A stretch of DNA of 64,000 nucleotides from an uncultured Gammaproteobacteria bacterium (GTDB lineage: Bacteria; Patescibacteriota; Microgenomatia; JAMCZE01). The notes under the pieces were generated by a model. The model was given only the letters and a program-made list of their open reading frames with translations, was not told where the DNA came from and ran no database searches. The translations under genes and the position numbers were made by a program. Positions within the stretch are counted from its first letter, which is position 1. Each line of letters begins with the position of its first letter. Of this stretch, positions 3,979 through 43,504 are shown piece after piece. The stretch is from contig CAZXMM010000001.1 of assembly GCA_964641255.1 (NCBI GenBank), positions 745,890 through 809,889 of the forward strand, in the 5' to 3' direction.

Positions 3979-5415
3979 ATGACATACGGCCTCGACTTCG
4001 GTACCACTAATAGTGCAATCAGCATCGGAAGGGCTGAGGGGAGACGAGGATCAACGCTTTTACCAATTGACGGCTTCGCATTTGACCCCCACGTTATCCG
4101 TACTGCGCTTTACTTTTATCCCCGGAAACTAGTCATTGACCCCCACACCACGAAGGAAGCTCTCGCTAGGAATGAGTTTAAAGTCGGACAAATTTGGTAC
4201 GAAGGTGAGTTTAAAACTGAAATTGGTGCCAAAGCGATAAAAACCTATTTAGCTGATAATAAAAATCGTCAACCCGGCATCACCCGCAAAATTTATACAG
4301 GCAAATGGATTAAAGCCAACAGCTCAGCCTCGGAAGATGTTCCTCAAAACGTGCAAGTGCCCGAGCATCATGTTGAAATTGATTATGGAACTGGAAGACT
4401 ACTTTACGCCCTAAAGACCGCCCTTAAAGCTCCACTTTATACAGGCTCGTCACTTTTTGGCAAGTTCTTTACCCTAGAAGAGTTAATCGCAACGTATGTT
4501 ACAGAGATCAAAAGAAAGGCCGACAGCCAAGTAGGAGACAATGTAACCTCGATTGTTTGCGGCAGACCAGTGGAGTTTTCCCCGAATAAAGCCAAGGACC
4601 GGGCGGCCCAAGACCGCCTGATAGAGGGACTTAGGGCTGCTGGATTTAAAACCATCGAGTTCGAATACGAGCCAGTGGCCGCCGCCAAACACTATATTTC
4701 TCTTCATCCTGGCGAGCAGAAAAAGGTGTTTGTCTTTGATTTTGGAGGCGGAACTCTCGACACTACGATTGTGGAGTCGGGAACTGTTCCGAAAATACTC
4801 TCAACAGGCGGCGTCTATATTGGAGGTAATCTGTTAAATTCAAAAATTTTAAAAGCTAAGCTTCTCCCTTATTTTGGCAGCAACATTACGTATGGCCATC
4901 GCCAGGTACCGCTCTCAAACCATATCTTTACTCAGCTGGCTTCTTGGTACACAATTCCCAATCTAAATAATCCAGCTAACATGCGCCATCTTTCAGATGC
5001 CCATTATCAGTGTTCGGACACCGCAGCATTGGATCGTCTTATTGCCCTCATTAACAGAAATCTTGGTTTCGAACTCTACGAAGCAATTGAAACTGCTAAG
5101 AAAGAACTGTCAAAAGAGAGAGTGTCTCGCATCGTTTTTAAGGATGCTTCCATTAGTATTGATATGCCCCTAACTCGCAGCGAATTTGAGGAAATTATTG
5201 CCCCAGAAGCTCACATGGTAGAAGCGCTTGTTATTAAAACCTTGGAGGATGCGAAAGTCGACCCCGAAGAGATCGACGTGGTAGTAAGAACTGGTGGGTC
5301 ATCGCTAATCCCGCTTTTTGAGCAGATGTTGGGGAGAATTTTCAAACCAGAGAAGTTAACCCTTCTTGACACCTTCACGAGTATTGCTTCGGGGCTCTCC
5401 CTACCGAAAATTTAA
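3979..5415 (+). CDS. Hsp70-family actin-like ATPase (short, YegD-like; lacks a substrate-binding domain)
   Basis: LDFGTTNSAISIG (phosphate-1) and VFDFGGGTLDTTIVE (Hsp70 DLGGGTFD-like). Only 478 aa. Confidence 0.7.
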   Translation: MTYGLDFGTTNSAISIGRAEGRRGSTLLPIDGFAFDPHVIRTALYFYPRKLVIDPHTTKEALARNEFKVGQIWYEGEFKTEIGAKAIKTYLADNKNRQPGITRKIYTGKWIKANSSASEDVPQNVQVPEHHVEIDYGTGRLLYALKTALKAPLYTGSSLFGKFFTLEELIATYVTEIKRKADSQVGDNVTSIVCGRPVEFSPNKAKDRAAQDRLIEGLRAAGFKTIEFEYEPVAAAKHYISLHPGEQKKVFVFDFGGGTLDTTIVESGTVPKILSTGGVYIGGNLLNSKILKAKLLPYFGSNITYGHRQVPLSNHIFTQLASWYTIPNLNNPANMRHLSDAHYQCSDTAALDRLIALINRNLGFELYEAIETAKKELSKERVSRIVFKDASISIDMPLTRSEFEEIIAPEAHMVEALVIKTLEDAKVDPEEIDVVVRTGGSSLIPLFEQMLGRIFKPEKLTLLDTFTSIASGLSLPKI

Positions 5416-5420
5416 GAGCA

Positions 5421-5939
5421 TTATTTTCCAGCTAGGTACCGAGAAGTAAATTCCTTATCAGAATTTTTGACGTTGGGGACACTGCTTACGGGAAAAAAGA
5501 TTCCTTTAACCAATTTAATACCAGGACGAAGAAGAATGGGCAGGGGACCAATATTATGAATGGGGAGGGCAAGGAACCCACTACTTCCTGGCTCAGCGAA
5601 TTGATCGCTGTGAAGAGCGTCCAGATCAATTTGTCCCTTGGATCCCCGGGTAGTCAGAAGTAGGGAAACAGTGCGGCCAAGCATCACATTTTCCGCGATA
5701 AAACCAATAATGAAGTCTCCGGGTTCTAAAAGGTATCCCGCTTTTGTCATTTCAAAAGCATTTTCAAACTCTAAGGTATCATCGGCACTGTCAAGAAACT
5801 CCTTTATTTTTAATTGACACAGCTTACTACCCAGAGTGAAGGTGTAACTGCCAGGCTTTAGATTCTCTTCAATAAATGGAGTGATACTAATCTCTCCTGT
5901 CGCAAGATAATTTTTAATATCAGAACTGGAAAGAATCAT
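5421..5939 (-). CDS. dCTP deaminase/dUTPase superfamily protein (Dcd-like)
   Basis: [21 protein letters not shown] matches the Dcd N-terminus [40 protein letters not shown] and LRPG also match Dcd motifs. Confidence 0.65.
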   Translation of the reverse strand: [172 protein letters not shown]

Positions 5940-6030
5940 AAGTGTAGTTTTATATTAGCGCAAAATTACTTGCATTTCTTTCACTTTACAATAATTTGAC
6001 TAGACCGCTCATTTCTGGCATTATAACTTC

Positions 6031-6627
6031 ATGAAGAGACTGCTCCTCTTGGGAAGCTTTGTCCTCGGCAATTTCTCCATTTTGGTAATCGCCTTTGCCA
6101 TTATTACTATGTGGACTACTCAGAGTAGTTCGGCCGCTGAGACAGAGAGTAGTGACGTGGTCCTCACTCTAGGTCCTAGGGAACTAAGGCACTTTGGCGC
6201 CGCACCGGCAGAGCTACCCCAGATCAGTCCCACAATTATTGAAAGTGATGCAAGACCGACCATTATCAACAAATTCTTTATCGCCCACTCTTCACCTATG
6301 ACCGGGCTCGGTAAAATCATTGTGGCCGAGGCGGATAAGAATAAGATTCCCTTTAATTTGCTACCGGCTATCGCCATGTGCGAAGGCAACGCCGGAAAAG
6401 TTATGCCCGAAGGCAGCTTTAATACTTACGGCTGGGGAATTTATGGTAACAAGGTGACCCGCTTTGCCAGTTGGGAAGAGGGGATAGCGGCAGTTTCCAA
6501 GGGACTACGGACTAATTATTACGACCGGGGGCTAACCACAATTGAAGCTATTATGGCCAGATACGCTCCTCCTTCTGAGGGATCTTGGGCAAACTGCGTT
6601 AACAAATATATGGCCGAGCTAGAGTAA
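6031..6627 (+). CDS. Membrane-anchored putative peptidoglycan hydrolase (glucosaminidase-like), paralog A
   Basis: N-terminal TM helix. Motif LLPAIAMCEGNAG...GWGIYG...SWEEGI resembles the glucosaminidase (FlgJ C-terminal-like) AxAxxESxxG pattern. Clear paralog of 6786-7331. Confidence 0.4.
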   Translation: MKRLLLLGSFVLGNFSILVIAFAIITMWTTQSSSAAETESSDVVLTLGPRELRHFGAAPAELPQISPTIIESDARPTIINKFFIAHSSPMTGLGKIIVAEADKNKIPFNLLPAIAMCEGNAGKVMPEGSFNTYGWGIYGNKVTRFASWEEGIAAVSKGLRTNYYDRGLTTIEAIMARYAPPSEGSWANCVNKYMAELE

Positions 6628-6645
6628 TCTAGTACTTCCCGCCAC

Positions 6646-6674
6646 TTGACAAGCCCATAATATATTGTTATAAT
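6646..6674 (+). promoter_or_regulatory. Consensus sigma70 promoter: TTGACA, 17-nt spacer, TATAAT
   Basis: TTGACA at 6646-6651, exact 17-nt spacer, TATAAT at 6669-6674. Confidence 0.5.
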
Positions 6675-6685
6675 CTCTTTTAGAT

Positions 6686-6724
6686 CCTGAGGTATGCTTC
6701 CCAAGGCTACGTCAGGGTTTTTTT
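6686..6724 (+). terminator. Intrinsic-terminator-like hairpin (CCTGA.GTA...TAC.TCAGG) followed by a 7-T run
   Basis: Imperfect 8-bp stem at 6686-6716 followed by TTTTTTT at 6718-6724. It lies only about 12 nt downstream of the predicted TSS of the 6646 promoter. Confidence 0.45.
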
Positions 6725-6785
6725 GTATCTAAGTCTTCCCCTTAGAACCATCTCATAGTAGACCAGGCAAAACTAGTCCACAACT

Positions 6786-7331
6786 ATGACAACTGCAACT
6801 CTTAAAAAATTTGTTCTCAAATGGCTCTTGGTTTTAACACTTTTAGTGTTAGCAATTTTTGGCAGCGCGGGAGAAACTTGGGCTACAGATATTCGCGAAC
6901 GCAAAATCGCTGCCTATCTTTTTAAACACAATTCCCCCCTGGCTTACTATGCCAAAGAGTTCGTGATTCAAGCTGATGAGAACGGCTTTGACTACCGACT
7001 GCTCCCAGCTATTGCGGGAGTGGAGTCAACCTTTTGCAAACGCTACATTGTTGGCACTTACAATTGTTGGGGTTGGGGAGTGGGAAAAATCCCTTTTGAG
7101 TCATGGGGACATGGGATAAACAAGATTTCCGATGCTTTGGGCGAAAAATACATTGGTCGGGGAGCGGTCACCGTCGAACAAATCGGCAGAATCTATTGTC
7201 CGCCTACCCATGAATCCTGGTCCAAAAACGTACGCTTTTTTATGAATGAGATCGACAGTGTTGATCTTTCAGAACCAATCTCCAACCTAACACTACCAAA
7301 TCAAGCCTTGGCCCGATCGCTTGATATATAA
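6786..7331 (+). CDS. Membrane-anchored putative peptidoglycan hydrolase (glucosaminidase-like), paralog B
   Basis: N-terminal TM helix. LLPAIAGVESTF...CWGWGVGK...SWGHGI aligns with paralog A along the whole C-terminal domain. Confidence 0.4.
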   Translation: MTTATLKKFVLKWLLVLTLLVLAIFGSAGETWATDIRERKIAAYLFKHNSPLAYYAKEFVIQADENGFDYRLLPAIAGVESTFCKRYIVGTYNCWGWGVGKIPFESWGHGINKISDALGEKYIGRGAVTVEQIGRIYCPPTHESWSKNVRFFMNEIDSVDLSEPISNLTLPNQALARSLDI

Positions 7332-7352
7332 TAGTCAAAGACATCTTTTTTA

Positions 7353-7437
7353 GGGCTGATGGCGGAATTGGTATACGCGCACGCTTTAGGAGCGTGTCCC
7401 GCAAGGGATGGAGGTTCAAGTCCTCTTCAGCCCACCA
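7353..7437 (+). tRNA. tRNA-Leu (anticodon TAG), class II with long variable arm
   Basis: Acceptor GGGCTGA/TCAGCCC, anticodon stem CACGC/GCGTG with loop TTTAGGA, long variable arm TCCCGCAAGGGAT, T-arm GGAGG-TTCAAGT-CCTCT, encoded CCA. Confidence 0.85.
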
Positions 7438-7493
7438 TTGATACTTTAGGATTCAAGCCGATAATTAAAATTGGCGAACAGCATTATTTAAAA

Positions 7494-7946
7494 TTGTCAG
7501 ACCGGGTGAGAACAAAATCAGAAATAGCTGCATTTTTGTTTGCGAAAGTGTCGGCTGACTACTCTGCGTCCATTACAGCCCAAGGAACTGCCTTAGCAGC
7601 AGCATGTAATAATCTCAGATTAAGACCTAGACGCCTAGGTCAAGCGCTGTTAGGGAATCAAACCGCACTGGAACGGCTGCAAAATGCCGCTAATTCCGCT
7701 CACGCACGAAATCATGTAATTGGCATTGTAACCGTAAAAGACGTTAGGGGAATTGTTGCTAGTGATTTTGCGATAGCAGACAGGCTGCGCTTATTGAATG
7801 AGTCCGATATTGACGAGATCTTAGGGCAATATTCGTATTTTCGTCAGATGCAACAGCAAATCGGTAGATTTGCTGAAATTGAATATCGTGAGGTGGCCTA
7901 CGATATTTTAGATATATATAAAAGGAAACTTGTCGCCTTCTTCTAA
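7494..7946 (+). CDS. Hypothetical protein; start uncertain (no in-frame ATG until near the C-terminus; possible TTG 7494 or GTG 7506)
   Basis: ORF track 7359-7946, but the first 79 nt of that ORF are the tRNA-Leu gene. No recognisable motifs. Confidence 0.3.
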   Translation: MSDRVRTKSEIAAFLFAKVSADYSASITAQGTALAAACNNLRLRPRRLGQALLGNQTALERLQNAANSAHARNHVIGIVTVKDVRGIVASDFAIADRLRLLNESDIDEILGQYSYFRQMQQQIGRFAEIEYREVAYDILDIYKRKLVAFF

Positions 7947-8026
7947 AGCTAACTAGTCAGCAAATATATTTAGCTTGCCACTCCCTAATTGTTTTCCGTT
8001 TCTACACTAAATAAACTGCTCTTGTT

Positions 8027-8686
8027 GTGTCAAAAAAAGTAACCCAAAAGGAAGTAGCCAAGCGAGGATTAGTTTTTATTGATTTTAATGGAGTAATCTC
8101 CTATAAACCCTTCTGGTCAACCCTAGCCGATAAGTCACACCCAAGTCATAGTCTTTTCCTAAAAATACAGGATTTAATTTTTGGCCCAGACCCCACTCTC
8201 GTCCAAGCCTGGATGACAGGAAAGAAGACCTCGGAAGAGATTCATGAAACACTGGAAAAAAACTTAGGTGCCCCTAAGGAACTTTTTAGTAACTTTGTTA
8301 GGGACTGCATAAATCTTGATGTTTCAGTTCCCATCATTTCCGCTGCTAAAAAATTGCGGTCAAATTTCCACCTCATTCTCCGTACGGACAATATGGACAC
8401 ATTTTCTCGCTGGACACTGCCCGCTCATCCAGAACTAAGGGAAACTTTCCACGAAATTTATTCGTCGTTTGAACTGGGTTTCTTAAAAAAGACTGATGGG
8501 GGTAAATTTTTCGTTGATCTGGCCGAAAAAAATGGGTTTACCATTTCTCAGTGTAGTCTGCTAGATGATAGTACTAGTAACTGCGCTCTCTTTAGGACGA
8601 TTGGTGGGCGGGCTTTTCAAACAACCAGCGAAATGGAAGCAATTACTGTGTTGGCTGGTCTAGGAAGTCACACTCGGCTTATTTAA
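8027..8686 (+). CDS. HAD-superfamily-like hydrolase (divergent motif I DFNGV)
   Basis: VFIDFNGVIS (motif I with Asn replacing the second Asp) and LLDDSTSN (motif IV-like). Confidence 0.45.
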   Translation: MSKKVTQKEVAKRGLVFIDFNGVISYKPFWSTLADKSHPSHSLFLKIQDLIFGPDPTLVQAWMTGKKTSEEIHETLEKNLGAPKELFSNFVRDCINLDVSVPIISAAKKLRSNFHLILRTDNMDTFSRWTLPAHPELRETFHEIYSSFELGFLKKTDGGKFFVDLAEKNGFTISQCSLLDDSTSNCALFRTIGGRAFQTTSEMEAITVLAGLGSHTRLI

Positions 8687-8720
8687 CACCCCGGTAGCAA
8701 TATGCTACAGTAATAGAGCC

Positions 8721-9506
8721 ATGAGGTTACTGCTGCCCAATTTAATCGTAGTTTGTCTGTTGTTCTGTAGCGTTTTTTTAGCCACTCCGGTTTCCGCTGA
8801 CTTTGCCAAAGCTTATCAAGATTATCTCTATAACAATACTCTCTATAAAGAAAACTATACGAATTATCAGGTCGCCAAGTCTACTTTTTTAACGTACCGT
8901 ACTAACTCGGCAGAAAACGACGCTATTATTGCCCTTAGGAAAGTGTTGCAGAGCCGCAACCAACTAATGGTGGTTTACTATGATTTGCTCTTTGAAAAGC
9001 TCCTGGTGACTCCCGGAATTAGTGACGACTACAAAACCACTTTTGGCAGTATCCGCACTAGCGAGCAAACCTGGCTGGCCGCTAATAAATTAAAGATCGA
9101 GGCGGCAGCCACCCTCCTGGATTTAAACTCAGTCTCCGGAGAATTTGAAGGGCGCTACCGGCAAATGGATAGCGAAACCAAGCAGGCTCTAGGGAGTGTG
9201 CTGTTAGCCAAAGAGCGAGTGCTAAGAGAAGAAGTAAACGCTGCGGTCGCCAGCGTTGGTGGTCAACTAACAGCTATGGATCTGGCTGGAGAAGACACCA
9301 CTATCTATAAACGCAATCTAATCGGTACCCAGAATAAACTGGAGCTGTTTGACGAGAAGATGGGTAGTGCCCAAAAGACACTGATTCGGCCGATTGGCGA
9401 GCCGGTAGAAGTTTTCCAGGGGCAACAACAATTAGCCGAAGCCAACCAATATTTAAGAGATATGGTCAGTAGTTTACTGGAAATTATTCGCTTAATTACG
9501 AGATAG
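8721..9506 (+). CDS. Secreted hypothetical protein (signal peptide)
   Basis: N-terminal LLLPNLIVVCLLFCSVFLATPVSA is signal-peptide-like. No known motifs. Confidence 0.5.
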   Translation: MRLLLPNLIVVCLLFCSVFLATPVSADFAKAYQDYLYNNTLYKENYTNYQVAKSTFLTYRTNSAENDAIIALRKVLQSRNQLMVVYYDLLFEKLLVTPGISDDYKTTFGSIRTSEQTWLAANKLKIEAAATLLDLNSVSGEFEGRYRQMDSETKQALGSVLLAKERVLREEVNAAVASVGGQLTAMDLAGEDTTIYKRNLIGTQNKLELFDEKMGSAQKTLIRPIGEPVEVFQGQQQLAEANQYLRDMVSSLLEIIRLITR

Positions 9507-9522
9507 TAAATCTTAAAACATT

Positions 9523-9921
9523 ATGGACGAACCACTTACTAACCCAGCCGTAAGTCCGCCAGTCAACCCGGTAGTAAATGACAGTGCTAAAGGAGTAGAA
9601 CCCAGTCCCAGACACTGGGGATTTAAAACCATCCTTCTGCTAGCATTGGGTGGGGTAATAGTTTTACTGGGCCTGTTCTATTTAGTGTTGGTGCTTTTTT
9701 CTCGGCCCAAAACTATCCCAGTGCCCACTCCCAAACCCAAAGTAGTCATTAAAGAAGAAATTATTGAGACTCCACCGCTGTCCAAATTTGCCAGCGACAG
9801 CGCTATTATTAGCCTCCGCACTAGTCTACAACAATTGCAGGGAAAGATTGACACTGTAGACTTTTATGAGGCGCAGATCACCCCGCCACTAATTGATACC
9901 AGTATTGCTATCCAGCCATAA
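9523..9921 (+). CDS. Hypothetical single-pass membrane protein with Pro-rich N-terminus
   Basis: PAVSPPVNPVVN, then TM helix TILLLALGGVIVLLGLFYLVLVLF. Confidence 0.45.
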   Translation: MDEPLTNPAVSPPVNPVVNDSAKGVEPSPRHWGFKTILLLALGGVIVLLGLFYLVLVLFSRPKTIPVPTPKPKVVIKEEIIETPPLSKFASDSAIISLRTSLQQLQGKIDTVDFYEAQITPPLIDTSIAIQP

Positions 9922-11976: not shown

Positions 11977-12003
11977 GGCTAGTGTATAATGCTTCAATGG
12001 GTT

Positions 12004-12077
12004 GGGCTCATAGCTCAGTTGGCTAGAGCGCTACATTGACATTGTAGAGGTCTCAGGTTCAAGTCCTGATGGGCCCA
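12004..12077 (+). tRNA. tRNA-Val (anticodon GAC)
   Basis: Acceptor GGGCTCA/TGGGCCC (one G-U pair), D-arm GCTC-AGTTGGCTA-GAGC, anticodon stem CTACA/TGTAG with loop TTGACAT, T-arm TCAGG-TTCAAGT-CCTGA. Extended -10 box TGTATAAT at 11984-11991. Confidence 0.85.
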
Positions 12078-12092
12078 CAGAGGTTTAAACAA

Positions 12093-12662
12093 ATGGTGAC
12101 ACATTCTTTGGCGATATTATTACTTCTTGGTTTTATTGTTATCTCTGAAAGCTCCAGTAGAACTCCTGGTCCAGCTAAAAAGATGAAAGTGAATGGAAAG
12201 TTCCAATTGCACACTTTTCTTTATTTAGTCTTAACACTTACTGGGATTGCTTTAGGAGTTCTTCTTCTTATTTTTCGCGTGGGCTATATTTCAAATTCCG
12301 AATTGATAGGATGGATTGGTATTGCTTTAATGATTTTAGCCATCTTCCTTAGAACCATTGCCATGAATACACTGGGGAAATACCACACACGATCATTAAT
12401 CACCCTGCCTAATCAACCAATAATACAAACAGGAATATATAAATATATTCGTCATCCTGGATATTTGGGCTCGATAATTGGGGGCATTGGCTTTGCCATA
12501 GCTACAACTAATTGGCTGATTATGGTTTATGCCGCGATAGCCTTGATAGTTGTTTTCCATTTTCGCATTGTCGCTGAAGAAAAAATGATGCTAACTACCT
12601 TTGGAGCAAAATATAAAGAATACTCTTCTAAGACAAAAAGGCTGGTTCCATTCATATTTTAG
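12093..12662 (+). CDS. Isoprenylcysteine carboxyl methyltransferase (ICMT/PEMT) family membrane methyltransferase
   Basis: C-terminal signature RHPGYLGSIIGGIGFAI...W...EEKMMLTTFGAKYKEY...RLVPFIF. The track ORF starts inside tRNA-Val, so the start is moved to ATG 12093. Confidence 0.75.
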   Translation: MVTHSLAILLLLGFIVISESSSRTPGPAKKMKVNGKFQLHTFLYLVLTLTGIALGVLLLIFRVGYISNSELIGWIGIALMILAIFLRTIAMNTLGKYHTRSLITLPNQPIIQTGIYKYIRHPGYLGSIIGGIGFAIATTNWLIMVYAAIALIVVFHFRIVAEEKMMLTTFGAKYKEYSSKTKRLVPFIF

Positions 12663-12771
12663 AAACTTGAGCATTAAACGATGGCAGTAATTTCCGATAT
12701 TCACTCAAAAGCGGTTCAATGTCGTTAACATAGGACCCACCAAAGCTGAACAGGTCTTCGGAAAGGTCCAT
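12652..12771 (-). CDS. Small ORF (39 aa, MDLSEDLFSFGGSYVNDIEPLLSEYRKLLPSFNAQVSKI) containing repeat copy 1
   Basis: ATG at 12771, TGA at 12652. A second, start-less copy of the same peptide (FGGPYVNNIEPLLSEY...) lies at about 13512-13608, with mostly synonymous differences. Confidence 0.3.
   Translation of the reverse strand: MDLSEDLFSFGGSYVNDIEPLLSEYRKLLPSFNAQVSKI
12696..12750. repeat. Direct repeat copy 1 (about 55 bp, roughly 80% identical to 13546-13606)
   Basis: GATATTCACTCAAAAGCGGTTCAATGTCGTTAACATAGGACCCACCAAAGCT versus GATATACTCACTTAGCAGTGGTTCAATGTTGTTAACATAGGGCCCACCAAAAGTT. Confidence 0.6.
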
Positions 12772-12832
12772 TTACTAAACTGGTATACGGTCTTATTGTG
12801 GAAAATACGGAAGACTCTTCGATATTCGATTA

Positions 12833-13477
12833 CTAATCAAATAAGTAGCCTTCTACATCTGAATCAAAATCAGGCCCATCATCGTCAGGGTGCTTAGCCA
12901 TACTAGCAAGATCTTGGGCAAATTGATCAGAATTCAAATAATCTGAATTCCATCGTCTGGAAAAATTCTCAAGCAAATTAACTACTGTCTCTAAATTGCT
13001 CTTTCTATCCTGGCCCTTATTAGATCTGACTTTAAGTTCATCTAATCTAGAGACATCTCCTTCAACTAAAATAAATGACTCACTTTCAATTCGGCCTTCT
13101 GCCCACATTTTTCTAACAAGTTCAATCTTTGCTACCTTTTTGGCTTTGTTGTATGTCCCGGCAAGTTTGAACTGCGGTACTTTCCTCTCACCATCATTAA
13201 AGCTATAACCCATCACTTTCATGTTTGGCATTGATTCTGACGCGAAATCAATTCGATCTGGATCTTCGTCGGATAGATAGATCCGTTCCGCAGCATTTTC
13301 ATTTCCATCTGGAGTAAGTCGCCAAATAGTTTCTTCGTCTCGGGAATCAAGATAGGGAACTCCTATTGCCGCTGCTCTGTGTCTAAATGTATCAGCTATA
13401 TCGACTATCCGGTTTATACTTTGTGACAAGCGAGTTTCTGGAAGCACGGGGATTTCTCTAGCATCAGAGTTTAGCAT
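12833..13477 (-). CDS. Hypothetical protein with acidic C-terminus, flanked by direct repeats
   Basis: 214-aa ORF, C-terminus DDDGPDFDSDVEGYLFD, no recognisable motifs. Confidence 0.5.
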   Translation of the reverse strand: MLNSDAREIPVLPETRLSQSINRIVDIADTFRHRAAAIGVPYLDSRDEETIWRLTPDGNENAAERIYLSDEDPDRIDFASESMPNMKVMGYSFNDGERKVPQFKLAGTYNKAKKVAKIELVRKMWAEGRIESESFILVEGDVSRLDELKVRSNKGQDRKSNLETVVNLLENFSRRWNSDYLNSDQFAQDLASMAKHPDDDGPDFDSDVEGYLFD

Positions 13478-13545
13478 ACATCATTCTATCACTAATTTTT
13501 CCCGTTGCTACTTATCCCCAATGGGGAGCACTTAATTCTTGATAT

Positions 13546-13606
13546 AATCGGATATACTCACTTAGCAGTGGTTCAATGTTGTTAACATAGGGCCCACCAA
13601 AAGTTT
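13546..13606. repeat. Direct repeat copy 2
   Basis: See 12696-12750. On the minus strand it encodes ..FGGPYVNNIEPLLSEYIRLYQELSAPHWG* without a start codon. Confidence 0.6.
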
Positions 13607-13621
13607 TAAATAGAAAACACT

Positions 13622-14233
13622 ATGATTAAGGCAATCACGTTTGATCTCGACGGTGTCTATTTCCCTGATGGCAAAACTAACTTTATAACAGCTCTTAGAG
13701 AACGTGGGGTTTCCGAGGAGGAAGCCAAGCGGGTCTTCCTTAAGAGCGAGGAAATGAATAGTCGCTACAAGCTCGGAGCGATGTCAGATAAGGAATATTG
13801 GACTTGGGCTGGTAAAGAATGGGGGTTAGATCTCTCGCCTCAACAACTTATTGATCTGCTCATCTCTAGCTATAGTGTTAGCCCTCAGGTTGAGGAGATA
13901 GTACGGTCGGCTCGGGTCAAGGGCTTTAAAACCCTAGTTTGTTCAAATAACTTTCCCGCTCGGGTAAACGGCCTTCAGCAACGGTTCAATTTTTTAAATA
14001 ATTTTGATGCAGCTGTATTTTCCTACGAAGTAGCCGCTACAAAACCCTCGGAAGTTATTTTTGTTGAACTGGTTAAACGGGCGGGAGTCTTAGCTAATGA
14101 AATTGCCTTTGCCGATGACAATCCTACTAATTTAGCAGGCGCTCAGTCGGTTGGGATTACAACTTTTCTTTATGAAGGCTTTGATAAGTTTATTGACCAA
14201 CTCAAAGGTCTAGGAGTAGACTTAACAGAATGA
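13622..14233 (+). CDS. HAD-superfamily hydrolase (subfamily IA-like)
   Basis: Motif I ITFDLDGVYF (DxDG); a conserved S/T, K and Asp-rich motif IV FADDNPTN are plausible. Confidence 0.8.
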   Translation: MIKAITFDLDGVYFPDGKTNFITALRERGVSEEEAKRVFLKSEEMNSRYKLGAMSDKEYWTWAGKEWGLDLSPQQLIDLLISSYSVSPQVEEIVRSARVKGFKTLVCSNNFPARVNGLQQRFNFLNNFDAAVFSYEVAATKPSEVIFVELVKRAGVLANEIAFADDNPTNLAGAQSVGITTFLYEGFDKFIDQLKGLGVDLTE

Positions 14234-36527: not shown

Positions 36528-37029
36528 TTCGTATCACTCTCATATTGTCACCACGAATTATCACTGACCGGGTAGTAGTCCCGTTCGTAACGGTGATCGT
36601 CAGATCACTCGCTGATAACACTCCTGCAGTGCAAGCAAAACCATTACTTCCAGTGCAACTGCCACAGAGGTTGGTGGGAGAACTAAAGCTAGTTAAATTA
36701 GGGTTAGCAAAACAAATCGTTCCACTACTGGGTGACAGAGTAACTCCCACCGGTAAATTCACAACCGTTCCGTCAGGCAGTTGATAAGATGTAGAGCTAA
36801 CTAGTGTTACCGCCCGCACCGATGAGCCGGCCGCGCCATTTTGCGCCTGGTTCTGGGCCGCCCGCAAACTACTCATTAGTTGGTTTTGGGCGTCAATCAC
36901 TAGCTGAGAGCGGTTAAAAGTCCCGAAGCCAAAAAAGGCAATGGTCGCGATAATACCAATCACCGCCATGACGATGATTAGTTCAATAGTGCTATAACCC
37001 CCACTAAAGTGAGCAGTTCTTGTGACCAT
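36514..37029 (-). CDS. Pseudopilin-like protein
   Basis: GGYSTIELIIVMAVIGIIA prepilin motif. Confidence 0.6.
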   Translation of the reverse strand: MVTRTAHFSGGYSTIELIIVMAVIGIIATIAFFGFGTFNRSQLVIDAQNQLMSSLRAAQNQAQNGAAGSSVRAVTLVSSTSYQLPDGTVVNLPVGVTLSPSSGTICFANPNLTSFSSPTNLCGSCTGSNGFACTAGVLSASDLTITVTNGTTTRSVIIRGDNMRVIRIDSL

Positions 37030-37757
37030 AGGGCAGCGATAAGAGTACCAACAATTAGAAACGGTCCTAAAGGAATTGTGGCAGAAAGCTTGGTCTTCTT
37101 CAAGAGAAGCAAGAGGGTAGCCACCAGTCCGCCACTGACAAACGCCACCCAGAGAGCCACTAAAATATTGGGCCAGCCTAGAAGGAGTCCCATCACCAAC
37201 GCCAATTTAACATCGCCCAGTCCCATACCCCTAAACCAAGTAATTAAGACGACAAGAAAGAACCCCAGCGAGGTGGCTAACCCGATTAGTAAATAAGCAG
37301 GAGAAATTGCTAGGCCAGCCAGGCCCGAGAGAATTAACATTTCGTCGGGAATTAAGCCGTAGTGTAAATCGGCAAAAAAGATGACGATAAAACTAAAAGC
37401 GATTAGGCAGAGTAGTAGGGAAGTCACAGCGGCCGTTGGGGTCAGGACAAAACACAGGACAAAGGACAAAGCTGTTAGCCCCTCAACTAGGGGGTAGTGC
37501 CAGCCAATTGGTCGGTGGCACCACCGGCATTTACCGCGCAACAGACAAAAGGAGAGCAGGGGGATATTATCTCGGGCCGCAATCTGTTTTTGGCATTTTG
37601 GACACAGACTGCGCCCCTGCCAAAATTTGGGAGCCTTAGGATCACAGAGTCTATAGATTAGAACGTTGGCAAAACTACCAAAAGCTAGCCCGATTATACC
37701 TATTAAAAGTAAAAAAAGTGGCCCTTCAGTCACCAGTCTATCATACCAAAATCCCAC
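36978..37757 (-). CDS. pilD: Prepilin peptidase (A24 family)
   Basis: GSFANVLIYRL...CPKCQ...IPLLSF zinc-binding box, multiple TM helices, DxxxG-like region. Confidence 0.85.
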   Translation of the reverse strand: MGFWYDRLVTEGPLFLLLIGIIGLAFGSFANVLIYRLCDPKAPKFWQGRSLCPKCQKQIAARDNIPLLSFCLLRGKCRWCHRPIGWHYPLVEGLTALSFVLCFVLTPTAAVTSLLLCLIAFSFIVIFFADLHYGLIPDEMLILSGLAGLAISPAYLLIGLATSLGFFLVVLITWFRGMGLGDVKLALVMGLLLGWPNILVALWVAFVSGGLVATLLLLLKKTKLSATIPLGPFLIVGTLIAALWSQELLTLVGVIALLN

Positions 37758-37798
37758 ACCTCCTGGTGTGGGATTTGTGTATCAACTCTGAAAAACAA

Positions 37799-38233
37799 CT
37801 ACTCAGCGACGCAATTGGGATCAGCAGTAGTGTTAGTGTTATAACCACCAGCGTTGGCGGTGGAAATTTTCCAAGTTGAGGCCGACGCTGAAGCCGTCTC
37901 CAGCTCTGCACAAATAGCGTAAGTGCCAGCGGCACTGTTAACGCTATAAGTATAGGCGCCCGCATCTTGCGGATCAACCGGAATTCTAGGAATGTATGTG
38001 GGGGCTAAGTCCGCTGTTACAGCAGGATAAGTCTGAGTCTCGGAATAATAAGCCTGAAGAGCTGTTCCCAAGGCGCGGACATCGGCTTTTCTCTTGGTAT
38101 CTCTCGTTTGGGCCTGTACCCGAGTGAACGAAATAACACCAATAGTTGCTAAAATAGCAATGACGGTGACCACAATCATCAGCTCTACCAGCGTAAATCC
38201 TTTTTTGTGATTTGATTTGATATAGTGTGTCAT
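37799..38233 (-). CDS. Type IV pilin (major-pilin-like), paralog 3
   Basis: KGFTLVELMIVVTVIAILATIG. Confidence 0.8.
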   Translation of the reverse strand: MTHYIKSNHKKGFTLVELMIVVTVIAILATIGVISFTRVQAQTRDTKRKADVRALGTALQAYYSETQTYPAVTADLAPTYIPRIPVDPQDAGAYTYSVNSAAGTYAICAELETASASASTWKISTANAGGYNTNTTADPNCVAE

Positions 38234-38259
38234 TTGTTCACCCCCTTTCCCTTTGACAA

Positions 38260-38757
38260 TTATTTTGGACCATCGAATGTATATAATTTTGTTTCGCCAC
38301 CTATAGTGATGGTGTAGGTATTGTTAGCGGCAGTGTAAGTATAAGTGTAGGCGACGTCACTGCCAGAGTAAGCTTTAATTCCAGTCACGGTGCCCACAGC
38401 GGAAGCGGCGGTAGAAACATTAGCCACTGTTCCACTGGGGTCAGTAAGCGCAGTGGCACCGTAACACCGCCCAAAAGTAACTGGGCTGCCAAGTGCCGGA
38501 TTATTACTGGTATTACCTCCCAGGTTGGTCCAATCAAAACTCGCGTTGCCCGGATAAGAACCCAGCTCGGCCTGAAAACACTCTAGGGCTGCTTGGAGCC
38601 CCTTCACAACTTGGGCCCGCTTAACGTCTCTTGCAGCTTTTTGGGCTTGACCAATACCCAAAAGAGCGAGGGTGGAGAGCACTCCAATCACCGTAATGAC
38701 AATCATGAGCTCAATGAGGGTAAAGCCGCGGTGCAGATTAAATCGGGCAGATTTCAT
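38260..38757 (-). CDS. Type IV pilin, paralog 2
   Basis: RGFTLIELMIVITVIGVLSTLA. Confidence 0.8.
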   Translation of the reverse strand: MKSARFNLHRGFTLIELMIVITVIGVLSTLALLGIGQAQKAARDVKRAQVVKGLQAALECFQAELGSYPGNASFDWTNLGGNTSNNPALGSPVTFGRCYGATALTDPSGTVANVSTAASAVGTVTGIKAYSGSDVAYTYTYTAANNTYTITIGGETKLYTFDGPK

Positions 38758-38803
38758 ATAACTTTAGTGTGGCGCCTTTTGACTACCCTGTCAAGAGGAC
38801 GGA

Positions 38804-39415
38804 TTAGTTAGGACTTTTGAAAATAACTGTACCCCCAGATTCTTTAGCTAAACAGAGCTCATAATCCTGCCCCGTGGCTGAGGAAGTTTTATAAGCATAA
38901 CCGGCGGGAATGGGACCGGTATCACTAAAGGATGCATAGTAATAGCTGCCATCTGGCCAACCACACGGATTGCTACTTCCCAACCACGCCGCTGTGCGCC
39001 AGTCTGTTCCTGGGTGATTAAAATAGTTCAACTCCAAACAAGTAGCGGCGTAAGCATTGGAAAAAATTTGCCCTTTGGACGGATCCTTGTACTGAGAAGC
39101 GTCAATATAGCCGCGGCCATGGAGTTGAGCAATCATAGTCGCGAACCCCGAATTACTGTTAACCCGCAGCGGATTACATCCCCCCACATTAACTGTGTCG
39201 CCAGATTTTGGGTAGTTTTTGGCATCGGCATAGTAACGTTCCAGCGCCCCTTGCAATCCGGTCATAAACTGAACGCGCTGGGTGTCCCTGGCTGAGGCTT
39301 GAAGTTTTCCTACTCCTACTAAGGCTAAAGTGGACAGTATGCCAATCACCAAAAGAACAATCATGATTTCAATGAGACTAAAACCCTTAGTTATGGCTAC
39401 TAAATTTTTCCTCAT
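38804..39415 (-). CDS. Type IV pilin, paralog 1
   Basis: KGFSLIEIMIVLLVIGILSTLA. Confidence 0.8.
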   Translation of the reverse strand: MRKNLVAITKGFSLIEIMIVLLVIGILSTLALVGVGKLQASARDTQRVQFMTGLQGALERYYADAKNYPKSGDTVNVGGCNPLRVNSNSGFATMIAQLHGRGYIDASQYKDPSKGQIFSNAYAATCLELNYFNHPGTDWRTAAWLGSSNPCGWPDGSYYYASFSDTGPIPAGYAYKTSSATGQDYELCLAKESGGTVIFKSPN

Positions 39416-39418
39416 ACT

Positions 39419-40630
39419 TTATTTAATCACATTTACCAAATTAAACATCGGTAGCAGTACAGCAATAGCCAGTCCTCCAACCATGCCGCCCATAAGAAGT
39501 ATCATTAGCGGCTCAAGCGCAGTGGTTAGCACCTTAACTTTGCGCTCACTGGATTCCTGATAAAACTTGGCTAGTCGGTCCAAACTATCATCCAGAGTCC
39601 CAGTTTCCTCGCCAATGGACATTAGCTGGGACACCATCAGGGGGAAGTGGGGATTGCGCCGAATTGCCAGAGATAGAGGCAGTCCCTTTTCCACGCTTTT
39701 AGAAGCGGTCACTACACCTTCGCGAAAATAGTTATTACCCATAGTGGCCGAGACGATTTTGAGAGAATCAATAATTGCTACCCCCGAGGAGAGTAGTGTC
39801 CCTAGGGTCCGAGCAAAAATTGTCAGGGCGACTTCTTCACTTAAGGGACCAAAAACAGGAAAGTGGAAAAAAGCGTTATTGATGAGCATGTCACTCATTG
39901 GGTTTTTTCGCAGCCCGCGGTAAATAATAAAGAGCAGGATAAGTAAGCCCACAACTACAAAAAGGTAATGGGTTAGTAGGTCTGACGCCCCAATTAGTAC
40001 TCTAGTCGGCAGCGGTAACTCCGCCCCAAATTGCGAATAGACGTCGGCAATTTTGGGAACAACGCTCGTCAACATAAAAAAACCAATCGCTCCCATAGCG
40101 ATCACCACAATCATGGGATAAATCATCGCTCCTTTAATTTTGCTTTTAAAATCAAGTTGGTTTTCCAGCGTATCAGCCAAGCGGGAAAGAGTCTCATCTA
40201 CTTTGCCCGAAGCCTCACCCGCTTTGATTAGACTGACATACAGGGTATTAAATACTAGGGGGTAGCGACTCATTGCATTAGATAGGGCGCTGCCTGACTG
40301 GACATCTCGCAGCAGTGAGCGCACCACTTCTTTGAAATGATTACTTTTGACCTGGAGAGCAAGATCAGCGAGGGCATCGGTAAGCGGCAGTCCGGTGGAC
40401 AGCATTGTCGCCAGTAACCTAGTAAAGGTAGCTACCTCTCGCTCAGACACCCCACTACCAAAAGAAAACGACAAGCTACGAAATTCAAAGCTTTTTTTTT
40501 CGGTAACTGTGATTACAAAATAACCGTGAGCCTGAAGAGCTTTCGCCGCTCCGGCTTCATTGACGTTCTCAATAGTACCTTTAACGATGGCTCCGGACTT
40601 GTCTTGGACTTTATATAGATACTGCTTCAT
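39419..40630 (-). CDS. pilC: Type IV pilus inner-membrane platform protein PilC (GspF family)
   Basis: Two GspF repeats, 403 aa, 3 TM helices. Confidence 0.85.
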   Translation of the reverse strand: MKQYLYKVQDKSGAIVKGTIENVNEAGAAKALQAHGYFVITVTEKKSFEFRSLSFSFGSGVSEREVATFTRLLATMLSTGLPLTDALADLALQVKSNHFKEVVRSLLRDVQSGSALSNAMSRYPLVFNTLYVSLIKAGEASGKVDETLSRLADTLENQLDFKSKIKGAMIYPMIVVIAMGAIGFFMLTSVVPKIADVYSQFGAELPLPTRVLIGASDLLTHYLFVVVGLLILLFIIYRGLRKNPMSDMLINNAFFHFPVFGPLSEEVALTIFARTLGTLLSSGVAIIDSLKIVSATMGNNYFREGVVTASKSVEKGLPLSLAIRRNPHFPLMVSQLMSIGEETGTLDDSLDRLAKFYQESSERKVKVLTTALEPLMILLMGGMVGGLAIAVLLPMFNLVNVIK

Positions 40631-40649
40631 AGTAGGGGAGGCGTCTTGG

Positions 40650-41702
40650 CTACATTTTATCGATCAACCGACTGACATCTTCAGTATTGGTAGCGTAGTC
40701 CATCGCAGTTTCCCGAGTAATTTTGCCACCCTTGACTAAAGAGGCCAGAGACATATCCATGGTTAACATCCCCAGCTCTCCCGACGTCTGAATGACATTG
40801 TCAATCATGTGGGTCTTGCCTTCCCGAATAATCGATCTCACCCCCGAAGTGGCGATTAAGATTTCTGTGCCCGGAACTCGGCCACCACCCAAAGCTGGTA
40901 ACAGTCTTTGGGAAATTATGGCTTCCAAAACATTGGAGAGCTGGAGTCTGACCTGGGCTTGTTGGAAATCCGGAAACACGTCAACCATCCGGTCAATGGA
41001 CTGAGCAGCAGAATTAGTATGAAGAGTGGCAAACACCAAATGGCCGGTTTCAGCAATGGTAATAGCGGCGGCAATTGTTTCAAAATCACGCATTTCCCCC
41101 ACCAACACGACGTTGGGGTCTTCCCGCAGCGCCGCCCGCAGAGAATTGTTCCAAGACAAAGTGTCGAATCCTACTTCCCGCTGGGACACTAGCGCCTTGC
41201 CTTGGGAATAAATGTACTCAATTGGGTCTTCAATAGTTAAAATATGGCCACCCTGTTGCTGGTTGATCTCTTCGATAATGGCCGCTAGGGTTGTCGATTT
41301 ACCGTGTCCGGTCGGGCCGGTGACTAGAATAAATCCCTGTCTTAAGGTCGTAAAACTGTGGCAGATTTTGGGCAAATTGAGTTCATCAATAGTACGAATT
41401 TTCAGGGGGATAAGCCGAAAGGCGAGGGCTTCAGATCCTTTTTGGAAATAGGCGTTGACCCGGAAACGACTCCTCCCATGAGAGTAGCCAAAATCTAATT
41501 CTTTATTGCGCTCCAGAGCCGTTTTTTGGTCCGCTGAGATCAGGGGAGCTAGAAGAGCAGTGATATCTTCCCCGGTTAAAATATTGTCGGCAACTTTGAT
41601 TAGGGTGCCGTCTATTCGAATAGTCGGACTGTAACCTGCCACCAAATGGAGGTCAGAGGCATTTCTAGCAATAGTCGTCTCTAGTAATTCTTGGATGGAC
41701 AT
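40650..41702 (-). CDS. pilT: Twitching-motility retraction ATPase PilT
   Basis: ASDLHLVAGYSPTIRIDG, Walker A GPTGHGKSTT, 350 aa. Confidence 0.9.
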   Translation of the reverse strand: MSIQELLETTIARNASDLHLVAGYSPTIRIDGTLIKVADNILTGEDITALLAPLISADQKTALERNKELDFGYSHGRSRFRVNAYFQKGSEALAFRLIPLKIRTIDELNLPKICHSFTTLRQGFILVTGPTGHGKSTTLAAIIEEINQQQGGHILTIEDPIEYIYSQGKALVSQREVGFDTLSWNNSLRAALREDPNVVLVGEMRDFETIAAAITIAETGHLVFATLHTNSAAQSIDRMVDVFPDFQQAQVRLQLSNVLEAIISQRLLPALGGGRVPGTEILIATSGVRSIIREGKTHMIDNVIQTSGELGMLTMDMSLASLVKGGKITRETAMDYATNTEDVSRLIDKM

Positions 41703-41705
41703 AAC

Positions 41706-43448
41706 TTAATCTTGCGCTACTCGAATAACTTCCTCAATAGTGGTTACACCTTCCAGCGCTTTTAAATAACCGTCTTGTTTCATGGTCAACATACCCTCTT
41801 CCACCGCCCGCTTTTCAATATCACTAGCGGAAGCGTGACTAAGAATGAGTTTGGCAATCGCGTCACTGATTGGTAACACCTCATAAATTCCCACCCGGGT
41901 TAAAAATCCGCTGCTGCCACATTCGCCGCAACCTTTACCTCGGTAGAGCAGTATCTTGCCATCTTTCTCCTTATCACTGGGGAAATATTTGCCCAGCACG
42001 TTCTTAATATCCGCTACCATTAGAGCCGGTGGCTCAAACGATTCTCGACAGTGGGGACAGATTTTTCGCAAAATTCTCTGCCCGAGAACCGCATTAAGTG
42101 ACGAGGCGAGAAGAAACGGTTCTGCTCCCAAATCCAAAAACCGAGGGATCGATCCGGAAGCATTACTAGTGTGCAGTGTCGAAAAAACTAAGTGACCAGT
42201 TAAAGCCGCTTGAATGGCCAGGTCGGTAGTCTCACGATCCCGGATTTCGCCGACCAAAATTACGTTGGGATCCTGCCGTAAAAAGGACCGTAGGGCCGCA
42301 GCAAAAGTTAGTCCCGCCGCCGGATTGACTTGCACCTGGTTGACACCAGGAATTTGGTACTCTACCGGGTCTTCGATAGTGACCGTGTTAACCCGCACCG
42401 AACTGGTTTTTGATAGTACCGAGTAGAGGGTGGTGGTTTTTCCTGAGCCGGTCGGACCACAAACAACAATGATCCCGTGGGGACGAAGAATCGCCATTTC
42501 TAAATTTTTGAGAGCTAAACCCCGAAGTCCCAAATCAGTAAAGGTGGGGACAGCTCCACTTTTGCGCAACAACCGAAGAACTACCTTTTCGCCATGAACG
42601 GTTGGGAGAGTCGAAACCCGGATATCAATTTCTCCGTTACCGTCCTCAGACTTAAAATTAAACCGGCCGTCTTGGGGGATCCGCTTTTCGTCAATTTTTA
42701 ACCCAGAAAGAATTTTAACCCGAGAAACCAGCGCGTCGTGAATCGCGGCTGGTAAAATCAGCTTCTCTTGCAAAATACCGTCGATTCGGTAGCGGATCCG
42801 AGTATGATCTTCTAGTGGTTCGATATGAATATCTGATACCCGTGCCTTAAGAGCAAAATCCAAAATTGAGCTGACAATTTTAGCTACCGGTGCATCACGA
42901 ATAATATCTGATCTAGCCAGTTCGGCGTTTTCTGCCTGCTTACTAATGGGTGAGTCCTTGAGAGCATCCCTAACTTCGGAAGTAAGATTTTGAGTCGTGT
43001 GAGTAGAAATCACCGCTTTGATAGCATCGAGTGGTGCCAAATACGGACGAATTTTTTTACCGGTCTTACGTTCCAGGAAAGTTATCGCCGTTAAGTCCAG
43101 TGGATCGACCATAGCCATAGATAGTGTGTTACTGCCCTGATCAAAAGCAAACGGTACCGCCTGGTACTCTTCCATGACGGTTTGGGACACAAGACTGTAG
43201 ACTTCCGGAGAAATAAGATGGGTCGAGAGGTCAAAGGTGGGTACCCCAAGAATAGCCGCTCTGGCTGCCAGTATCTCGTGCGCAGTAGCAAACCCTCGCT
43301 CTTGCAAGATCGCCTCCACGCTTTTGCCGGTATTGTCGTGCTCCAGTTTGACCAAATTTTTTTGGTCTTCAGTGATAATTTTATTGACCAGCAAAATATC
43401 CTCAATCGAACCAAGTGCTGGAGATGATTGGGCTTGGGCAGAATCCAT
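41706..43448 (-). CDS. pilB: Type IV pilus assembly ATPase PilB (GspE family)
   Basis: N-terminal GSPII-like domain, Walker A GPTGSGKTTT, tetracysteine CPHC...CGEC. Confidence 0.9.
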   Translation of the reverse strand: MDSAQAQSSPALGSIEDILLVNKIITEDQKNLVKLEHDNTGKSVEAILQERGFATAHEILAARAAILGVPTFDLSTHLISPEVYSLVSQTVMEEYQAVPFAFDQGSNTLSMAMVDPLDLTAITFLERKTGKKIRPYLAPLDAIKAVISTHTTQNLTSEVRDALKDSPISKQAENAELARSDIIRDAPVAKIVSSILDFALKARVSDIHIEPLEDHTRIRYRIDGILQEKLILPAAIHDALVSRVKILSGLKIDEKRIPQDGRFNFKSEDGNGEIDIRVSTLPTVHGEKVVLRLLRKSGAVPTFTDLGLRGLALKNLEMAILRPHGIIVVCGPTGSGKTTTLYSVLSKTSSVRVNTVTIEDPVEYQIPGVNQVQVNPAAGLTFAAALRSFLRQDPNVILVGEIRDRETTDLAIQAALTGHLVFSTLHTSNASGSIPRFLDLGAEPFLLASSLNAVLGQRILRKICPHCRESFEPPALMVADIKNVLGKYFPSDKEKDGKILLYRGKGCGECGSSGFLTRVGIYEVLPISDAIAKLILSHASASDIEKRAVEEGMLTMKQDGYLKALEGVTTIEEVIRVAQD

Positions 43449-43504
43449 TTGCTATAACTGTATACTAATACTAGCTTACTTTGCAATGTTATTATTAGTC
43501 GCTT

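Follow-up and report, generated by a model that had tools for sequence, protein, structure and literature searches.

How did a single gene come to lie on the opposite strand, between two copies of a direct repeat, within a long run of genes that all read the other way? The locus is found in a stretch of 64,000 nt (the window; positions 745,890 to 809,889 of contig CAZXMM010000001.1, assembly GCA_964641255.1) from a bacterium of the Candidate Phyla Radiation (CPR)/Patescibacteria, whose genome is probably about 0.95 Mb in size. The gene codes for a protein of 214 amino acid residues (aa) and is the sole opposite-strand gene in a run of >20 co-directional genes (Table 1). We tentatively favour the view that it was acquired as the cargo of an islet near a tRNA gene and that the repeat on either side of it is the non-coding scar of an insertion, a reading to which we give somewhat less than an even chance.

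The direct repeat itself is well defined. Its two copies, 12697-12744 and 13554-13601 on the plus strand, are 48 nt long, identical at 41 of 48 positions (85%, seven differences) and spaced by 857 nt from start to start, and together they bracket the 214-aa gene. An earlier note on this DNA had spoken of a 'repeat-flanked single-gene module' with a repeat of about 55 bp and about 80% identity at 12696-12750 and 13546-13606; the module is correctly described, and the repeat essentially so, its slightly loose coordinates being refined here. The right-hand edge is sharp at 12744 and 13601, directly past ...CCCACCAAA in both copies, which fits a recombination junction. Leftward on the same diagonal a weaker match (14/28) continues to about 12669/13526, for an identity of about 72% over 76 nt. 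Judged by this alignment, the repeat block could be about 76 nt long, in which case copy 1 would begin directly after the stop codon of the preceding gene, that of an ICMT/PEMT-family membrane methyltransferase (hereafter ICMT). The 857 diagonal shows no further similarity outside the block. The longest identical run between the copies is 11 nt, and the substitutions comprise six transitions and one transversion. Copy 1 is located between convergent gene ends and copy 2 between divergent gene starts, the latter ending 20 nt ahead of the start codon of the HAD-family hydrolase gene (HAD).

A degenerate version of the 32-nt core of the repeat matched two sites in the window, the two copies, and none in 100 shuffles. 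No third copy was found in the window or in any fetched relative with blastn-short and nhmmer, and in a window-wide repeat scan the 48-nt pair was the best short non-genic repeat. A chance origin of the repeat is excluded by these degenerate-core, shuffle and copy searches. We also considered an assembly artefact and set it aside: a second assembly (run SRR14932608) is base-for-base identical over 20.6 kb, which opposes an artefact, though it was probably made from the same reads and, its independence not being established, does not constitute independent confirmation.

The bracketed gene lies in a low-GC islet of 1.5 kb (12079-13620) between a tRNA-Val(GAC) gene and a conserved HAD-HIT gene pair. 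The local order is trigger factor, DUF5660, small open reading frames (ORFs), tRNA-Val(GAC), ICMT, copy 1, the 214-aa gene, copy 2, HAD, HIT and thrS-infC-rpmI-rplT-pheST, all on the plus strand except the 214-aa gene. The GC content drops to 0.37-0.39 over 12000-13200. The ICMT and 214-aa genes have the two lowest values, both of GC and of GC at third codon positions (GC3), of the 59 genes of the window, the former with the lowest GC (0.365, z = -3.4) and the latter with the second-lowest GC and the lowest GC3 (0.312, z = -2.6). The best metagenome relatives of the ICMT protein are at or below 41% identity.

We compared this interval with its counterparts in GTDB genomes found by a query with the HAD protein, whose HAD proteins are 40-70% identical to it. 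Nucleotide similarity to these relatives begins exactly at the HAD ATG, and the genes upstream differ in every genome. In several of them a tRNA gene is found 80 nt to 1.2 kb upstream of HAD (Table 1). One relative, L022, harbours a perfect 24-nt direct repeat (CAAATCCCGATCGAGTCACAAAAA), one copy of which (5903-5926) is the tRNA-Glu 3' end while the other (5977-6000) ends at the HAD start codon; from its sequence, this arrangement looks like an att-type or partial-tRNA duplication scar. A 13-nt repeat of the anticodon-arm region is present between the two 24-nt copies. In another relative, L015, a minus-strand tRNA-Asn with partial copies of itself occupies 5146-5650, 0.4-0.8 kb upstream of HAD, with a 50-nt repeat of 84% identity (5225-5274/5527-5576); this structure may be a pseudo-tRNA or an interrupted tRNA. 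The tRNA genes and scars upstream of HAD in the relatives thus identify the interval as a recurrent variable spot tied to tRNAs and repeat scars, and those of L022 and L015 indicate that, within the clade, scars of this kind are a recurrent feature of the position.

The cargo itself is rare. The 214-aa protein matches no entry of Pfam, PHROGs, PADLOC or NCBIfam and no phage or plasmid record, and in a word-indexed protein search its only match was itself. Two real relatives, both from CPR genomes and the only homologues among 15 billion proteins, emerged when 1.84 billion representatives were scanned exhaustively with HMMER: P0002 (203 aa, 33% identity, E = 1.6e-27) and P0003 (197 aa, 26% identity, E = 3.7e-18). 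A third match, to a repeat protein, was judged spurious, and a profile search added no members to these three. An alignment of the three proteins spans their entire length and has 36 invariant columns, with the two homologues at 33% and 27% identity; the three therefore represent a genuine, very rare protein family. Its acidic tail is confined to the window member. The gene for P0002 is fused into an operon, where it precedes ftsW. That for P0003 stands alone on a Roizmanbacteria contig; it is also an isolated opposite-strand gene (L053, 5701-6445) adjoining a tRNA-Asn gene (6373-6445), with no flanking repeats.

An AlphaFold (AF2) model built from the three-sequence alignment (pLDDT 76, pTM 0.71) predicts an N-terminal helix, seven to eight consecutive antiparallel strands and C-terminal helices (alpha, beta7-8, alpha, alpha). 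The best PDB match found with Foldseek, p32/gC1qR, is not significant (E = 0.013, probability 0.54, TM 0.23-0.25), and a search of BFVD returned nothing significant. The p32/gC1qR protein has the same order of secondary-structure elements as the model, and the 214-aa protein resembles p32/gC1qR/MAM33 in this order and in being acidic. However, as it has neither a Pfam MAM33 match nor significant structural similarity, we do not claim that it belongs to that family.

The following scenario would account for these features. The 214-aa gene would be horizontally acquired, lineage-specific cargo of the variable islet. The incoming unit of 857 bp would have consisted of the gene and one repeat, with a copy of the insertion-site sequence left on each side. 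An att-like site on the incoming DNA may have recombined with a similar chromosomal site to generate the flanking direct repeats, after which the recombinase would have been lost from the vicinity and the copies would have drifted to 85% identity. As identical runs between the copies are at most 11 nt long, the module is probably no longer mobile but fixed. An insertion is supported by the uniqueness of the repeat, the extreme composition of the ICMT and 214-aa genes, their position directly downstream of tRNA-Val and their lack of close relatives. The insertion or cassette origin put forward in the earlier note is thus plausible, given the lone opposite-strand gene, the low-GC islet next to tRNA-Val and the homology that starts at the HAD ATG; the repeat, its geometry, the base composition, the rarity of the gene and the variability of the interval are observed, and what we infer is the origin of the repeat by insertion and the incidental nature of the peptide frame running through it.

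Several results weigh against an insertion scar. No integrase, recombinase or transposase Pfam domains are encoded by the called genes within +/-10 kb. The collections searched yielded neither an empty site nor an excised form or strain variant, and a single organism in them carries the locus: exact-protein look-ups with the 214-aa, HAD and ICMT proteins returned that organism only, the relatives found through HAD (<=70% identity) have no upstream synteny, and the metagenome query with ICMT gave nothing above 41% identity. Neither flanking repeats nor the peptide are present at the P0002 and P0003 loci; with homologues that are not repeat-flanked, and one of them inside an ftsW operon, the family gives no hint of mobility as a cassette. 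The repeat also fails to resemble known recombination sites. It has only two short motifs in common with the 3' part of the adjacent tRNA and is not a copy of it. The attC sites of integrons carry consensus boxes, R'' (RYYYAAC) and R' (GTTRRRY), at their two ends, and neither box occurs on either strand within 12600-12860 or 13460-13700. The best likeness to dif is 15-16/28, about the 97th percentile of random windows, as scored against the E. coli site, which may not be that of the CPR host. Finally, the seven differences between the copies, read in the minus-strand frame, fall on third codon positions four times, on first positions three times and on second positions not at all, and this pattern, together with the two open frames, is mildly better explained by coding constraint.

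The lack of a recombinase within +/-10 kb is what one would expect of a non-mobile event, such as a local segmental or tandem duplication of the ICMT-HAD spacer, by slippage or unequal crossing-over, most of which has since been deleted or overwritten so that 48-76 nt are left. The presence of two copies only, close together and in direct orientation, and the possible low similarity to about 76 nt on the same diagonal fit this explanation as well. However, it leaves unexplained how a complete, compositionally foreign, opposite-strand gene with remote homologues came to lie between the copies, and the 857 diagonal bears no similarity outside the block. We regard such a duplication as unlikely.

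If the coding constraint is real, the repeat could instead be a duplicated small protein gene, with copy 1 as a functional gene, downstream of the 214-aa gene and transcribed together with it, and copy 2 as a pseudogene without a start. The earlier note had read a shared minus-strand core, FGG(S/P)YVN(D/N)IEPLLSEY, in both copies, complete in a 39-aa ORF over copy 1 and start-less in copy 2, and these readings were borne out. The frame of copy 1, which differs from that of the 214-aa ORF, has both an ATG and a stop; that of copy 2 is closed upstream by a TAG (13620-13622) overlapping the HAD start codon (ATG). Of the six frames, the minus frame alone is open in both copies. In this frame the seven differences amount to five synonymous and two amino-acid changes. 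When seven random substitutions of the same type were simulated and scored for at most two amino-acid changes with both frames open, P was 0.037 when the minus frame was considered and 0.059 when any of the six could be the one that stays open. The synonymous bias between the copies is only marginal, a figure drawn from seven substitutions: it is suggestive of coding but not compelling. Amino-acid likeness runs weakly past the nucleotide core (16/26 identical), which also speaks for a small gene. In contrast, similarity ends abruptly at the FGG end of the peptide, unlike what is seen in a conserved protein.

Homology searches likewise argue against a small gene. With both peptides concatenated, a search of 5.8 billion protein clusters gave one word-sharing candidate and none at E <= 10. 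A fully degenerate back-translation of FGGxYVN(D/N)IEP had no matches in viral and metagenome contigs, the peptide was absent from 27 related loci (tblastn), and domain-family scans gave no family match for the 39-aa ORF. Hence, none of these collections holds homologues with coding-type conservation that would place it in a conserved family of small ORFs. The gene calls of the public assembly do not include the 39-aa ORF, and inspection of the sequence by eye revealed no ribosome-binding site upstream of its ATG. A resemblance of the plus frame of the repeat to part of the HAD gene product (QKRFNVVN versus QQRFNFLN) is attributed to chance (BLASTP E = 0.16). Purifying selection at the protein level, as asserted in the earlier note, does not follow from seven differences with such P values in a peptide without relatives in these searches. 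Nor do the 39-aa peptide and the 214-aa protein form a pair, since the two remote homologues of the latter have neither the peptide nor a flanking repeat. The same note had held that a repeat devoid of coding conservation would be a simple local duplication, and the outcome leans towards a simple local duplication or scar. We consider a duplicated small gene doubtful.

The ends of the repeat raise the question of a tRNA origin. Each copy includes the T-loop-like sequence GGTTCAA and has GG(G/A)CCCACCA at its end, oriented as in tRNA-Val. A pattern defined post hoc, after the sequences had been viewed, GGTTCAA-N4-16-GGRCCCAC, occurs at only three sites in the 64 kb, all on the plus strand: the tRNA-Val 3' end (12056-12078), 12713-12744 and 13570-13601. 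The gap between GGTTCAA and GG(G/A)CCCAC spans N(8-13) across the three sites, and the repeat copies continue with CCA. The copies might therefore be decayed tRNA-3'-end att sites, and tRNA-Val/ICMT/copy 1/214-aa gene/copy 2 would then form a tandem pair of islets. The sharp boundary directly after the CCA-like end and the genuine tRNA-end repeat at the equivalent place in L022 agree with such a model. However, in local alignments to tRNA-Val copy 2 reaches about the 99th percentile and copy 1 is unremarkable, and unrelated tRNAs score no worse. The spacing of the motifs in the copies is off by 5 nt relative to tRNA-Val, the T-stem cannot form, and the tandem model needs a tRNA 3' end that matches the copies, whereas a mismatch is seen. 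ARAGORN and Rfam call no tRNA at the copies, although the Rfam truncated-match test is insensitive, as the true L022 fragment was missed too. The likeness of the repeat to a tRNA 3' end lacks a secure statistical footing; it is unexplained, and we do not count it as evidence. An origin of the repeat from a tRNA fragment was rejected, the motifs being suggestive but supported neither by alignment statistics nor by ARAGORN or Rfam. We hold the tandem-islet model to be quite improbable.

A regulatory role was also considered. The repeat core is an imperfect palindrome around GTTAAC, with the same short hairpin in both copies; both copies are intergenic, and the 48-nt core is better conserved than its left extension. 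These features would suit a cis-element used at two places, either an operator bound by a protein or an RNA hairpin, which would frame and control the 214-aa gene along with the genes beside it. The predicted folding of the repeat is, however, no better than that of shuffled sequences (minimum free energy -9 to -16 kcal/mol, z = -0.25 to -0.9), and no Rfam family matches at the copies. A promoter and terminator scan placed no site in the repeats and showed no enrichment. In addition, the copies occupy different functional positions, convergent ends in one case and divergent starts in the other, and the 64 kb contain no others. We consider a cis-element very unlikely. The earlier note had also pointed to a TTAACA hexamer as a -35-like element for HAD: the hexamer is present at 13582-13587, but the second position of the best -10 candidate is not the conserved A, and it was not among the sites that the promoter scan picked up.

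The palindromes could also be seen as the recombination sites of a minimal CPR cassette system, neither integron-like nor tRNA-based, from which an 857-bp circle could be excised, now or recently, by a recombinase encoded elsewhere. We deem this highly improbable. If true, it would add a novel type of single-gene cassette to organisms that are believed to be integron-free.

The significance of the locus is limited. A repeat-flanked orphan gene in a tRNA-adjacent variable islet is a structure of a known and fairly ordinary type; the present case and the three-member family are new, if modest. An insertion scar would make it a small, clean example of ultra-small CPR genomes acquiring and retaining single orphan genes at a tRNA-side hot spot upstream of HAD-HIT, and useful background on CPR genome plasticity that opens no new question. 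The three-member family, with a confident predicted fold and no significant PDB or BFVD match, is a minor curiosity. The locus would be of real interest only if the repeat were an active recombination site or if the 39-aa ORF were translated.

The coordinates of the features are collected in Table 1. The mechanical ICMT ORF of 197 aa (12069-12662) begins inside tRNA-Val. The true start is almost certainly the ATG at 12093 (189 aa), with AGAGG at 12079-12083 directly after the tRNA; a 189-aa ICMT is called in the public assembly (L001), which supports this start. Elsewhere in the window, a type IV pilus-like cluster on the minus strand (36900-43450) contains three pilin-like genes with an N-terminal methylation motif and a prepilin peptidase (A24) gene. 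The window-wide scan also detected a 59-nt repeat family, which reflects N-terminal regions repeated among neighbouring genes of this cluster; three of its copies are in the pilin-like genes. Six consecutive plus-strand genes at 6031-9921 code for proteins of 132-261 aa with no Pfam domain except one sub-threshold glucosaminidase match; a tRNA-Leu gene (7353-7437) is embedded in this run and overlaps the mechanical start of a 195-aa ORF.

Table 1. Features of the islet and its borders in window coordinates, followed by tRNA features upstream of HAD in four relatives
Feature	Position	Strand	Remarks
tRNA-Val (anticodon GAC), left border of islet	12004..12078	+	ARAGORN; Rfam tRNA 69.2 bits, E = 1.8e-14
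ICMT/PEMT-family membrane methyltransferase gene, 189 aa	12093..12662	+	Pfam PF04140 4.7e-19, PF04191 5.9e-15
39-aa ORF over copy 1	12652..12771	-	MDLSEDLFSFGGSYVNDIEPLLSEYRKLLPSFNAQVSKI, then stop; 11-nt overlap with ICMT 3' end
Direct repeat copy 1	12697..12744	.	48-nt core; possible left extension to about 12669
214-aa gene	12833..13477	-	Very rare CPR-specific family; acidic C-terminal tail
35-codon open frame over copy 2	13515..13619	-	CFLFKTFGGPYVNNIEPLLSEYIRLYQELSAPHWG, then stop; no ATG/GTG/TTG; absent from ORF list
Direct repeat copy 2	13554..13601	.	48-nt core; possible left extension to about 13526
HAD-family hydrolase gene, right border of islet, first of HAD-HIT pair	13622..14233	+	Pfam PF00702 2.1e-16
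Relative L011			tRNA-Val(GAC) 1.2 kb upstream of HAD, different genes between
Relative L002			tRNA-Gln about 80 nt upstream of HAD
Relative L022			tRNA-Glu about 80 nt upstream of HAD; 24-nt tRNA-Glu 3'-end repeat abuts HAD ATG
Relative L015			tRNA-Asn; extra partial tRNA-Asn copies upstream of HAD

How does the locus compare with known mobile systems? In E. coli, phage 21 and e14 at icd supply a replacement for the 3' end of the host gene. The locus is similar in that two diverged, coding-like short segments flank an insert and differ mostly by synonymous changes. In contrast to icd-type systems, there is no host gene body upstream. An icd-type 3'-end replacement was rejected: copy 2, whose frame stop overlaps the opposite HAD start, is closed by the TAG at 13620-13622 and abuts the opposite-strand HAD gene, and copy 1 is out of frame with the 214-aa gene. 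An Xer/dif element (an integrative mobile element exploiting Xer, IMEX, with a 28-nt 11-6-11 site at the terminus) was rejected as well, the repeat being not convincingly dif-like and the GC skew showing no switch beyond a dip caused by the minus-strand gene.

Integron cassettes resemble the locus in layout. The attC sites are 57-141 nt long. As in cassettes or in a cluster of attC sites lacking an integron-integrase (CALIN), a promoter-poor orphan ORF of <1 kb lies between two similar sites that are imperfectly palindromic and share a strand, and an integrase is lacking in the vicinity. Unlike in those systems, the site is 48 nt long and without R'' and R' boxes, and instead of a stable hairpin with extrahelical bases it can form only a short, unstable one around GTTAAC; with boxes absent and a hairpin like that of shuffled sequence, the identification of the repeat as attC is unsupported. 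Cury et al. (2016, PMC4889954) define a CALIN as an attC cluster without an integron-integrase, made up of two or more attC sites that share a strand within 4 kb, and report integrons to be absent from very small genomes. The two similar sites of the locus, on the same strand and 857 nt apart, are within that 4-kb span, their identity as attC sites being the very point at issue, and the host genome is of about 0.95 Mb.

There is also a parallel with tRNA-proximal islets or islands of the tyrosine-integrase type, flanked by att direct repeats, in a decayed state. The locus departs from them in having no integrase within +/-10 kb, the 214-aa protein itself being without a match in the four family collections, and in that its repeat is not demonstrably part of a tRNA, its copies are 85% rather than 100% identical, its unit of 857 bp is tiny and the repeat copies enclose only one of the two islet genes. 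What it shares with such islands is a neighbouring tRNA gene, tRNA-Val(GAC) lying 0.6 kb from copy 1, an atypical composition, with the lowest-GC genes of the 59, lineage-specific cargo, an interval whose upstream content differs among relatives, and direct repeats that bracket the cargo. In addition, a relative, L022, harbours a true tRNA-end repeat at the equivalent place.

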